DNA of 64,000 bases, from positions 2,176,001-2,240,000 of the forward strand of contig CAVZJV010000014.1 in NCBI GenBank assembly GCA_963775685.1, in the 5' to 3' direction. Within the stretch, counting starts at the first letter, position 1, and each line of letters begins with the position of its first letter. Shown here one piece after another: positions 794-61,092 of this stretch. The notes beneath the pieces are model-generated. The model had not been told where the DNA came from and ran no database searches. It was given only the letters and a program-made list of their open reading frames with translations. The position numbers and the translations under genes were made by a program. This DNA is from Candidatus Bathyarchaeota archaeon (GTDB lineage Archaea > Thermoproteota > Bathyarchaeia > Bathyarchaeales > Bathycorpusculaceae).

Positions 794-816
794 TGGAACC
801 GCTGGGACTCGAACCT
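794..816 (-). repeat. tRNA 3'-end-like fragment (possible att remnant)
   Basis: Reverse complement AGGTTCGAGTCCCAGCGGTTCCA = T-loop, T-stem and acceptor 3' strand, ~95 bp after the terminase. Confidence 0.45.
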
Positions 817-1171
817 AAGGTCGTCACATGCGCCCCAGACATGTATCTTAATCTATGCTATCGGTTGTTTGTAATGTCCATACTAATGAGGGTTTTAATG
901 CGATAAAAAAAGCAGAGGATTTTGTTCGTTGAGGATGAAGGATTAAGACCATTTGAGCGACAGAGCAGTTTTTAGAAGCACAAGACAGGCCACCACTGGT
1001 ACTGTGGATTCCTTCAAAAATATATCCCGGCGCAAAGTTTGTGTTCTTTGAAACCGGCGGATAGATGTTTGGTGATACCTAGATGATTTACAAAGTGAAA
1101 CGGGTCAGCTTTCTGCGAAAGAACAAAATAATTCCATAAAAGGAAAAGTTAGGGGGTTATCCGCCTCTTTT

Positions 1172-10289: not shown

Positions 10290-10363
10290 AGCCTCGAGCG
10301 GGCTTTGCTCCCGCGGCCTGCTGCTTACGAGGCAGCCGCTCCACTGGGCTGAGCTATCGAGGC
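10290..10363 (-). tRNA. tRNA-Thr(CGT) with non-canonical D/T loops
   Basis: GCCTCGA acceptor, GCTC/GAGC D-stem, GCTGC-CTCGTAA-GCAGC anticodon arm, GCGGG-AGCAAAG-CCCGC T-arm, U73. Confidence 0.9.
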
Positions 10364-53733: not shown

Positions 53734-54765
53734 ATGCCCAGAACAACCCCGCCGTGGGAAACCCAACGCCAATTGCTAACAAAAAAAGAAGACTACACCG
53801 ACCCAAAATACGGTTGCAAACCCTCTGAGCGACCAGCAAAAGAATACATCAAATATGGTACCATAAACCTCGATAAGCCTGCCGGTCCGACAAGCCACGA
53901 AGTTGCGGCATGGGTCAAAAAAATCATGCATTTAGAAACGATTGGGCACGGAGGAACCCTCGACCCCAAAGTCACAGGTGTTTTACCAATCACACTTGAG
54001 GACGCGACCAAAATGGTTCAGGCGCTGCTTCACAGCGGCAAAGAATATGTCTGCGTCATGAAACTGCACGGCGACGTAGGCGAGGACCAGGTTAAGAGTG
54101 TTTTGGCTGAATTTGAGGATGAAATCTATCAACGTCCACCTTTACGTTCATCAGTCAAACGGCAAATCCGTACTAGGCGCATATACTATAACAATTACAT
54201 GGAGATGGATGGACGAAATGTTCTCTTCAAAGTCGGCTGCGAAGGCGGAACATACATCCGTAAACTCTGCTTTGACATCGGCGAAATCCTAGGCGTTGGC
54301 GCTCACATGCAGGAGCTCCGTCGAACCCGCGCAGGGCCATTCCTTGAAACCAGCGCCAAAAAAGTTACGTTGCATGATGTTGCTTACTGGTTTGGTGAAT
54401 ACGAAGCGAAAAAAGAGCAGTCATTCTTGTGCAAGTTCATTGAGCCCATGGAAGTTGCTCTAATGCAGGTCCCCAAAATCATCGTTCGCGATTCAGCCGT
54501 TGATGCTCTTTGCCACGGCGCCAACTTGACCGCGCCAGGTGTGTTGCAGGTTGATACGGGTATCATGAAGGATTCAGTGGTTGCGATTTTCACGTTAAAG
54601 GGCGAAGCAGTTGCGTTAGCTAAAGCGCTTGTTTCAACCCAAGAGATAATGGAGCTAAACCATGGCGCAGTTGCTGCTCTTGCACGTGTGCTTATGCCAC
54701 GGGGCACTTACCCAAAAGTTTGGAAAAGTAGGGGCGCCAATGAGCAAAGACCCAAAGAACGTTGA
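53734..54765 (+). CDS. cbf5: H/ACA pseudouridine synthase Cbf5 (TruB family)
   Basis: LDKPAGPTSHEV, GHGGTLDP.VTGVL, GTYIR.L and PUA domain. Confidence 0.95.
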   Translation: MPRTTPPWETQRQLLTKKEDYTDPKYGCKPSERPAKEYIKYGTINLDKPAGPTSHEVAAWVKKIMHLETIGHGGTLDPKVTGVLPITLEDATKMVQALLHSGKEYVCVMKLHGDVGEDQVKSVLAEFEDEIYQRPPLRSSVKRQIRTRRIYYNNYMEMDGRNVLFKVGCEGGTYIRKLCFDIGEILGVGAHMQELRRTRAGPFLETSAKKVTLHDVAYWFGEYEAKKEQSFLCKFIEPMEVALMQVPKIIVRDSAVDALCHGANLTAPGVLQVDTGIMKDSVVAIFTLKGEAVALAKALVSTQEIMELNHGAVAALARVLMPRGTYPKVWKSRGANEQRPKER

Positions 54766-55354
54766 GCACTATTTTGCCTGTGCACCCAGATCTCAGGAAC
54801 GCTTCGGACTTGTTCGAACTATCCTTTGCGGTAAATCCTTCGAGTTTTTGACTGCCTCGAGTGTTTTTTCGAAGCGAAAGATTGATTCTGGCACCAGGCT
54901 GCTCATCGAAGCCATGGTGCTGCCTCAAACAGGCTGCGTTCTTGACATCGGCTGCGGATACGGTGCTGTCGGAATATCCATCGCTAAACTCAACCCCAAA
55001 CTGCACGTAGTCATGACGGATGTGAACGCCCGAGCAGTGCGCTTAGCCAAGAAAAACGTGGAGTTAAACAGAGTAACAAACACCGAGGTACGTTACGGCT
55101 TCTTCTATGAGCCTGTGGAGAATTTGAAGTTCAATTGCATTCTGTCGAATCCTCCTGTAAGTGCCGGCATGGAAACAGTGAAAGCAATAGTGACGGGTGC
55201 TCCTATAGAAATGTCGACCGACGCGAGTTTTCAAATGGTTATCCGCTCCAAAATTGGCGCAAAATTATTGCCTTCTCTTTTTACTGAAACTTTTGGCAAT
55301 TGTACAGTTCTTGCTCGTGAGAGTGGTTTTAGGGTACTCGTAGGCAAGATTTAG
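54740..55354 (+). CDS. Class I SAM methyltransferase, RsmC-like
   Basis: HYF, VFS...ID.GT.LL, LDIGCGYG, DVN.RA and SNPP. Confidence 0.85.
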   Translation: MSKDPKNVEHYFACAPRSQERFGLVRTILCGKSFEFLTASSVFSKRKIDSGTRLLIEAMVLPQTGCVLDIGCGYGAVGISIAKLNPKLHVVMTDVNARAVRLAKKNVELNRVTNTEVRYGFFYEPVENLKFNCILSNPPVSAGMETVKAIVTGAPIEMSTDASFQMVIRSKIGAKLLPSLFTETFGNCTVLARESGFRVLVGKI

Positions 55355-55693: not shown

Positions 55694-55924
55694 ATGAAAC
55701 TAAACAAGATCGACGAAAAAGTCTACCAAACCCTCAAAACAGAAGGAAAGGAATTAACCCTGCAGGAACTAACTGACAAAACAGGTGAACCCTCAAAAAA
55801 AGTCTTCAAATCACTAAAAAAGTTTTTCGAGCAAGAAATCATAGAGACCAAAGCTCGAAAATACTCTTTGACTGGAAAAGACCCCAAAACCGCGAAAGAA
55901 GAAGAACCCAAACCAAAAGAATAA
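55694..55924 (+). CDS. Small winged-helix protein
   Basis: LTLQELTDKTGEPSKKVFKSLKK.FEQ.II. Confidence 0.6.
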   Translation: MKLNKIDEKVYQTLKTEGKELTLQELTDKTGEPSKKVFKSLKKFFEQEIIETKARKYSLTGKDPKTAKEEEPKPKE

Positions 55925-55934
55925 AAATTTCTTG

Positions 55935-56011
55935 TGGAGCCTCGAGCGGGCCTTGCTCCCGCGGCCTGCTGCTTACAAGGCAGCCGCTCTACTGGGCTGA
56001 GCTATCGAGGC
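55935..56011 (-). tRNA. tRNA-Thr(TGT) with non-canonical D/T loops, CCA encoded
   Basis: Same body as the CGT copy (3 differences); T-loop AGCAAGG, D-loop AGCCCAGTA. Confidence 0.9.
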
Positions 56012-56180
56012 ACATGCAGATTCATTTTTGCATCAACACATAAAAACCTACCCAAATAAAAGTTGTTGCTAACGGTACTGAAGGCGATTTATCGCCAAAG
56101 TCCTTAAGAGGACAAATTGGGTAGTGCCTCTTACATAAATGGGATAAAAATTACTATTCTCGCATAGTTAGGTCAAGCTA

Positions 56181-58055: not shown

Positions 58056-58059
58056 CATT

Positions 58060-61092
<3,033 letters not shown>

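Follow-up and report, generated by a model that had tools for sequence, protein, structure and literature searches.

The threonine tRNA gene at positions 55935-56011 (minus strand) of the window, by which we mean the whole 64,000-nucleotide stretch of DNA that was analysed, encodes a tRNA-Thr(UGU) with A18 and G55 in place of G18 and U55. Our results indicate, with a probability of roughly 80%, that this is a working elongator tRNA in which the inner layers of the elbow have been rebuilt, and that ACA and ACG are decoded by it and its CGU sister alone. The host genome is that of an uncultivated soil archaeon of the Bathyarchaeia (3.06-Mb assembly, 14 contigs, 96.9% complete). G18-pseudouridine55 and U54:A58 are textbook near-invariants of tRNA, and modification enzymes, tRNA finders, engineering rules and structural models assume them. 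Both are broken here in an essential tRNA of widespread soil and sediment archaea.

Two threonine tRNA genes and the decoding of ACA and ACG

ARAGORN called four tRNA genes in the window, including tRNA-Thr(TGT) and tRNA-Thr(CGT) (10290-10363), both on the minus strand. The TGT gene is 77 nt long, and its anticodon is located at 55977-55975. In standard numbering it has the acceptor stem G1-A7, U8 and A9, the D-stem GCUC, the anticodon loop CUUGUAA, the variable loop AGGCC, the T-stem GCGGG and the discriminator U73, followed by an encoded CCA. The stems are 7, 4, 5 and 5 bp long, the anticodon loop has 7 nt, every stem pair is standard and the minimum-free-energy fold is a cloverleaf. The D-loop AGCCCAGUA (55990-55998, minus strand) reads A14 G15 C16 C17 C17a A18 G19 U20 A21 from 55998 to 55990, with A18 at 55993 and G19 kept at 55992. 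The T-loop AGCAAGG (55951-55957, minus strand) consists of A54 (55957), G55 (55956), C56, A57, A58, G59 and G60 (55951). Reading of the sequence thus bore out the T-loop, the D-loop and the encoded CCA described in an earlier note on this DNA.

The canonical T-loop is U54 U55 C56 R57 A58 N59 Y60. In the canonical elbow U54 pairs with A58 and position 60 is a pyrimidine (PMC7912444). In tRNA-Thr(UGU) the non-canonical positions are 18, 54, 55 and 60, which are A, A, G and G, so that the G18 and U55 combination, the U54:A58 pair and the pyrimidine at 60 are all missing. The other core nucleotides are canonical, with U8:A14, G15:C48, G19:C56, G53:C61, the purine A57 and A58 all kept. The Rfam alignment of the T-arm accordingly shows mismatches against the GGUUCgAaUCC consensus. 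The earlier note had raised as a check whether tRNA finders miss these genes or score them low. This was not the case: ARAGORN found both, and their Rfam RF00005 scores (57.7 bits for TGT and 53.9 bits for CGT) lie above the gathering score of 29 bits and rank 25 and 33 among 45 Infernal hits.

The CGT gene has A18 at 10345 and the T-loop AGCAAAG at 10309-10303. Alignment of the two genes confirmed that they differ only at positions 21 (A/G), 34 (U/C) and 59 (G/A), as had been noticed before; by blastn they are 95.9% identical over 74 nt. The distance between them, given earlier as about 45 kb, is 45.6 kb. CCA is not encoded in the CGT gene, and the minimum-free-energy fold of the CGU copy is a non-cloverleaf, whereas that of the TGT gene is a cloverleaf. 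A non-cloverleaf minimum is common for unmodified tRNA sequences folded in silico.

Putative expression signals surround both genes. A conserved box, AACTTTTATTTGG, lies at 56052-56064 (minus strand), 41-53 nt upstream of the 5' end of tRNA-Thr(UGU), and is a candidate archaeal BRE/TATA promoter element. It was found upstream of the TGT gene in all 20 same-genus TGT loci printed, in either elbow state. In relatives, a TTTAAAAA box is located about 35 nt upstream of the CGT genes. T-rich tracts follow the threonine tRNA genes on the 3' side, and the one directly 3' of tRNA-Thr(UGU) (55913-55934, minus strand) may be an oligo-T terminator.

Three further features of the window were observed. A Cbf5 gene (53734-54765, plus strand; DKCLD, TruB_N, TruB_C_2 and PUA domains), whose product is a pseudouridine synthase that can form pseudouridine 55, and a gene for a small-domain methyltransferase (54662-55354, plus strand) lie 0.6-1.2 kb from this U55-less tRNA, which is probably a coincidence. 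A complete archaeal 23S rRNA occupies 58059-61091 (plus strand; Rfam). No 16S or 5S match at gathering score was obtained in the whole 64-kb window, so the large-subunit gene seems unlinked from the small-subunit gene. ARAGORN also called a tRNA-Pro(GGG) at 794-868 (minus strand) whose D-arm and acceptor stem are poorly formed (a simple parser counted 2 and 5 pairs). It was not reported by Rfam at gathering score in the window or genome scan, and it may be a degenerate tRNA or a remnant.

To place the two genes among the other tRNAs of the genome, 46 ARAGORN calls were parsed. A54, G55 and A18 occur together only in the two threonine genes, and 37 of the 46 calls have U at both 54 and 55. Three of the remaining nine, one being the ARAGORN-only Pro(GGG), were mis-registered by the simple parser. 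U54 and C55 with G18G19 were found in five tRNAs (Asp-GUC, Glu-UUC, Val-GAC, Val-UAC and Thr-GGU). Counting the five C55 and two G55 tRNAs, pseudouridine 55 is impossible in 7 of the 46 that were parsed. The two threonine tRNAs, having no U at 54 or 55, also cannot carry a uridine-based modification at position 54. Genes for Pus10, Cbf5 and a TrmI-like methyltransferase are kept in the genome.

Whether tRNA-Thr(GGT) shares the elbow had been raised as a check. It does not have A18/G55, yet it is non-canonical as well (G18, U54, C55). C55 was present in 25 of 25 tRNA-like rows of tRNA-Thr(GGU) from the genus of the window (genus g1), and the same tRNA in other families of the order has UUC, or AUC in one case. 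The T-loops of the C55 tRNAs have the form UCCRAxU, and all these genes, including tRNA-Thr(GGU) at G000:C14:1522866-1522942, are located outside the window. Two partial 3' copies of tRNA-Thr(GGU) (G000:C14:1528487-1528532, 95.7% over 46 nt, and 1529263-1529285, 23/23 nt) lie 5.5-6.4 kb downstream of the full gene, which is the pattern that would be left by an element integrated into a tRNA gene. Elsewhere in the genome, an intron-containing tRNA with a CAU anticodon (G000:C14:1349392-1349526) has the T-loop CUCGAAU and thus C54. An ARAGORN false positive with a long 'intron' (G000:C14:2457683-2458519) covers a stretch that by eye is far richer in G+C than the 38-46% of the window, and this stretch could be of foreign origin or misassembled.

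ARAGORN with introns allowed, Infernal and blastn-short agreed on three tRNA-Thr genes genome-wide, and none of the three methods found a further tRNA-Thr(UGU) or tRNA-Thr(CGU) in the genome. ACA and ACG make up 32.7% and 13.4% of the threonine codons, together 46% (1,039 ORFs of at least 300 aa). Nearly half of the threonine codons therefore depend on the two A18/G55 tRNAs. An NGU anticodon, together with the acceptor stem and discriminator, was taken as the mark of threonine identity. Besides the anticodon UGU, tRNA-Thr(UGU) has G1:C72, C2:G71 and U73 in common with tRNA-Thr(GGU). A profile search of the genome found a single thrS, at G000:C14:1595343-1597103, above the cut-off (505.7 bits), with the only archaeal editing domain fused to it, so that one ThrRS serves all three threonine isoacceptors. 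An arrangement of two ThrRSs, one for each elbow type, is ruled out by this single gene with the sole archaeal editing domain.

Positions 18 and 55 in Bathyarchaeia

The T-arm of tRNA-Thr(UGU) was searched exactly in one genome per species. Most of the matches listed were chance matches inside bacterial genes; six were in tRNAs, and the same tRNA was found, among the matches listed, in MAGs of Candidatus Bathyarchaeota archaeon. An identical or near-identical gene (E <= 1e-10) was present in 111 of the 120 genomes of genus g1. A pattern scan from the D-loop to the T-loop in this genus yielded 150 listed rows and 7 more matches. By hand count, the listed rows comprised 122 A18/G55, 24 G18/U55, 4 A18/U55 (all CGT genes) and no G18/G55. 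In 26 further genomes from eight genera, 44 rows were obtained: 23 A18/G55, all from genus g21, 20 G18/U55, a single A18/U55 (the CGT gene of genus g23) and again no G18/G55. The 194 listed rows of both scans gave 145 A/G, 44 G/U, 5 A/U and 0 G/G. These results show that A18 covaries with position 55 within the clade. A18/U55 exists (five listed genes), and G18/G55 was never seen in the listed rows.

Many g1 genomes hold a second CGT gene type, with the D-loop AGCCUGGUA, the T-loop AUCAAAG and G18/U55. Its presence beside A18/G55 genes means that both elbow types coexist in single cells. When the A18/G55 tRNA was compared with its G18/U55 orthologues in sister species, the acceptor stem, discriminator and anticodon loop were the same, and the differences were only at 18 and 55.

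The A54 background is broader than the swap at 18 and 55. A scan of 301 genomes belonging to the order detected an A54-bearing threonine YGU tRNA in 119 of 147 members of the window's family. Two other families had it in 24 of 60 and 3 of 25 genomes, and it was not detected in the other nine; a reversed-pattern control gave no matches. In 401 genomes of the class, tRNA-like G55 matches were confined to genus g1 (29/39) and genus g21 (12/12), the other matches not being tRNA-like and the reversed control matching at a similar rate. The ancestral state in the outgroup genera is A54 with G18/U55.

The history of the swap was followed on an RpoB tree of 41 genomes (one gene, 2,907 columns, 21 of 38 inner branches starred, 9 open forks). 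Genus g21 lies outside the group formed by g23, g39, g18 and g1. For the TGT gene, 19 genomes are A/G, 19 are G/U and 3 have no known state, which requires at least 6 changes on the DNA tree and at least 4 on a quick protein tree. For the CGT gene, the corresponding minima are at least 6 and at least 5. The TGT gene is flanked by homologous sequence whichever state it has (identity of about 74% for G/U species, 77-85% for most A/G species), and thus both states occupy the same locus. Many of the changes on the tree may stem from gene conversion, since the TGT and CGT genes are so similar, or from recombination between species, so they were not counted as independent substitutions. In that case, 18 and 55 would travel together simply because they are 37 nt apart, and the independent mutational events inside the clade may be as few as one or two. 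The most plausible order is that A54 arose first, at the family to order level, followed by A18 and then by G55 in two genera. A18/U55 would be a tolerated intermediate, and G18/G55 would be forbidden.

Relatives of the gene were also found in RNA libraries. Metatranscriptome contigs from three studies (X16, X18 and X19) contained the gene without any internal difference, and a fourth run (X20) gave only more diverged or partial pieces. The flanks of these contigs are different, which indicates that they come from relatives. The contigs run into flanking DNA and could represent DNA carry-over or precursors, so this is presence in RNA libraries rather than proof of transcription.

G55 tRNAs of phages and packed arrays

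Among the matches listed, the T-arm scan also returned several viral contigs and a short contig binned with a Verrucomicrobiaceae MAG (L075), which has 8 packed tRNAs in 1.6 kb, all with G55. A first sample of 99 tRNAs was parsed on the matched loci, with D-loops classed as AG, GG or other by a simple string rule rather than by structural alignment. Among the G55 tRNAs, 54 had AG without GG, 2 had GG and 7 had neither. The U55 tRNAs comprised 30 with GG, 4 with neither and none with AG, and the C55 tRNAs were 2 with GG. This sample had been chosen through the motif of the A18/G55 tRNA itself, and for this reason a second one was drawn by the T-loop UGCGAAU alone. On viral contigs, 47 of the 49 UGCGAAU matches listed had AG without GG in the D-loop, 1 had GG and 1 had neither.

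The matches listed in the second sample were accompanied on their loci by 475 bystander tRNAs. Of the bystanders with U55, 416 had GG, 3 had AG and 18 were other; those with G55 were 29 AG, 3 GG and 1 other; and those with C55 were 4 GG and 1 other. The AG-versus-GG contrast between G55 and U55 tRNAs is thus very large, and it holds across many tRNA species and loci. Whole packed arrays at L075 and at the viral loci L223, L231, L282, L298 and L299 have G55 T-loops (UGCRA, CGCRA, AGCAA) and AG for GG. No A18/G55 tRNA was found in the cultured phages phi92, Caulobacter phage CcrRogue and Mycobacterium phage Alice, in which all parsed tRNAs had U55, and a megablast search with a G55 initiator tRNA gave no match.

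A different variation was seen in some phage tRNAs, where a T-loop beginning with AUCGU suggests that the U54:A58 pair has been swapped to A54/U58. It occurs, for example, in tRNA-Gly and tRNA-Asp of phage Alice (L448, NC_028986.1 91103-99150) and in ten bystander tRNAs on viral loci of the UGCGAAU sample. The tRNA-Lys of phage Alice has A54 with A58.

The A18/G55 tRNAs of phages and arrays have A18 and G55 in common with tRNA-Thr(UGU). Position 54 in them is mostly U or C (UGCRA, CGCRA), and in many cases they are additional copies carried by mobile DNA. Unlike these sets, the threonine genes described here have an A54 background, are single-copy and chromosomal, and are the only decoders of their codons. 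They are single genes 45.6 kb apart and do not form a packed array or an extra copy on viral or mobile DNA.

Elbow architecture and known parallels

In the working elongator that we propose, the outer pair G19:C56, which faces proteins and the ribosome, would be kept with the rest of the core, and only the inner elbow layers would be rebuilt. The reverse-Hoogsteen U54:A58 pair would be replaced by a purine-purine A54:A58 pair, as in the eukaryotic initiator tRNA. In place of the G18-pseudouridine55 contact, A18 would insert between A57 and A58 and form hydrogen bonds with G55. FMN and cobalamin riboswitches use this predicted geometry in their guanosine-type T-loops, which combine YGNRA with an intercalating adenosine. 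In the riboswitch T-loops, UGNRA accounts for 88.7%; 99.96% of FMN sequences have adenosine as the base inserted between loop positions 4 and 5; in the env8 structure the intercalating adenosine is joined by two hydrogen bonds to the guanosine of position 2, at its sugar edge; and tRNA T-loops are distinguished by a uridine at position 2 (bioRxiv 10.1101/2022.12.26.521914). With nucleotide 55 of a tRNA equivalent to position 2 and nucleotide 18 to the intercalator, A18/G55 corresponds to the riboswitch-type solution and G18/U55 to the tRNA-type solution. G18/G55 would be without such pairing, which fits its absence. Judged from the sequence, A18 is in the right place for the intercalator, and it covaries with G55. 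In the yeast SUP4oc tRNA, no single mutation was tolerated at G18-U55, G19-C56 or U54-A58 (PMC4117946), and this intolerance offers a reason why the changes are coupled.

The earlier note argued that two loci with the same substitutions speak against sequencing error or decay, and that the two genes are the isoacceptors expected to read ACA and ACG. Both points held up. Near-identical copies could fit a recent duplication, and the CGU copy has no encoded CCA, so decaying duplicates, pseudogenes or errors of sequencing or assembly might be considered. However, the same letters occur in more than 100 independently assembled, species-level genomes and in the contigs of the three metatranscriptome studies. 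All stems are intact, and the only variation is covarying or conservative. Conserved boxes stand upstream of both loci, the locus is the same in both elbow states, and the genome has no canonical replacement or any other UGU or CGU gene. We regard decay or error as having a negligible chance of being correct. It is also very unlikely that these are specialised RNAs not mainly engaged in ribosomal decoding, such as donors for non-ribosomal aminoacyl transfer or regulatory tRNA-like RNAs. Odd elbows are indeed known in tRNAs with special roles, namely G55 in tRNAPyl (PMC1851642) and A54 in the eukaryotic initiator (PMC7912444). Against this, the two genes provide the only UGU and CGU anticodons for 46% of the threonine codons, and they do not differ from the G18/U55 orthologues in acceptor stem, discriminator or anticodon loop.

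Another explanation concerns why the elbow was fixed and is compatible with a working elongator. A tRNA without U54, U55 and G18 could escape a nuclease or other enzyme for which those nucleotides are the site of recognition or action, such as a tRNA-targeting activity encoded by a virus or toxin, or a U55-directed modifier, and lineages in conflict, phages included, would keep adopting the swap. The frequency of A18/G55 in phage-encoded tRNAs and tightly packed arrays is consistent with this idea, as are the several switches of state within the archaeal clade and the loss of U55 from all three threonine isoacceptors of genus g1 (C55 in GGU, G55 in most UGU and CGU). On the other hand, no candidate nuclease or enzyme was identified, Pus10, Cbf5 and the TrmI-like gene are kept, and 37 of the 46 parsed ARAGORN calls still have U54 and U55. 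G18/U55 and A18/G55 also coexist within the genus and within single genomes, which suggests that the fitness differences are small. We therefore consider an adaptive swap unlikely, although less so than a specialised RNA. If the switch were selected, it would suggest that archaea and phages share a hidden line of conflict or regulation in which the T-loop is central.

Returning to the rebuilt elongator elbow, neither A18/G55 in a tRNA nor A54 in an archaeal tRNA-Thr was described in the literature searched, which covered few subscription journals and no supplements. The only G55 tRNA met there was tRNAPyl of Desulfitobacterium hafniense, in the available text of PMC1851642. A 2020 review of non-canonical tRNAs mentions neither U55 nor phages in the available main text, and its passages on G18/G19 concern other tRNAs; in a paper on long tRNA arrays, the main text is silent on G18, U55, G55 and the T loop. 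Three features are particular to the threonine tRNAs here: the background is A54 (and G60), the swap affects chromosomal archaeal genes that alone serve two codons, and a single family has retained the ancestral, intermediate and derived states. The occurrence of these states in the same genus provides a natural mutational series for what the elbow requires. Pseudouridine 55 appears to be dispensable for a sole-decoder tRNA, and for engineered tRNAs a design rule would be to change 18 and 55 together and to avoid G18 with G55. A more general proposal, which we put forward tentatively and hold to be possible rather than likely, is that G18-pseudouridine55 and A18-G55 are two interchangeable natural elbow architectures, the latter with the T-loop logic of riboswitches and RNase P. 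An essential elongator tRNA would then move between them through a viable A18/U55 state, here on an A54:A58 background unreported for archaea, and would yield tRNAs without both near-universal T-loop modifications.

Compared with known systems, tRNA-Thr(UGU) shares with the canonical elbow the cloverleaf, the stem lengths, G19:C56, A57, A58, G53:C61, U8:A14 and G15:C48. The eukaryotic initiator tRNA has A60. The initiator type combines A54:A58 and A60 with a CAU anticodon; tRNA-Thr(UGU) has A54 and A58 with G60, likewise a purine beside A54:A58, and the anticodon UGU. A54:A58 in place of U54:A58 is found both in this initiator and in eukaryotic tRNA-Ala(AGC), as in tRNA-Thr(UGU). Unlike these eukaryotic cases, the present tRNA is an archaeal elongator tRNA-Thr with a canonical G15:C48, and A18/G55 is not described for them in the available portions of PMC7566577 and PMC7912444. 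The tRNAPyl of Desulfitobacterium hafniense also has G55 and is without the T54-pseudouridine55-C56 and G18G19 motifs, but it differs by a 5-nt D-loop, a 6-bp anticodon stem, a 3-nt variable loop and the absence of a 19:56 pair (PMC1851642), whereas tRNA-Thr(UGU) has the standard architecture and keeps G19:C56. The closest parallel in loop logic is given by the YGNRA T-loops, which share a G at position 2, a purine at position 4, an A at position 5 and an available adenosine with tRNA-Thr(UGU) (G55, A57, A58 and A18). The likeness of the A18-G55 geometry is one of analogy, since the riboswitch T-loops carry a pyrimidine at loop position 1, where tRNA-Thr(UGU) has A54. Unlike the riboswitch T-loops, this T-loop forms an elbow with a D-loop, in which position 3 (C56) still pairs with G19. 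The swap may link tRNA elbows to the general T-loop motif of riboswitches.
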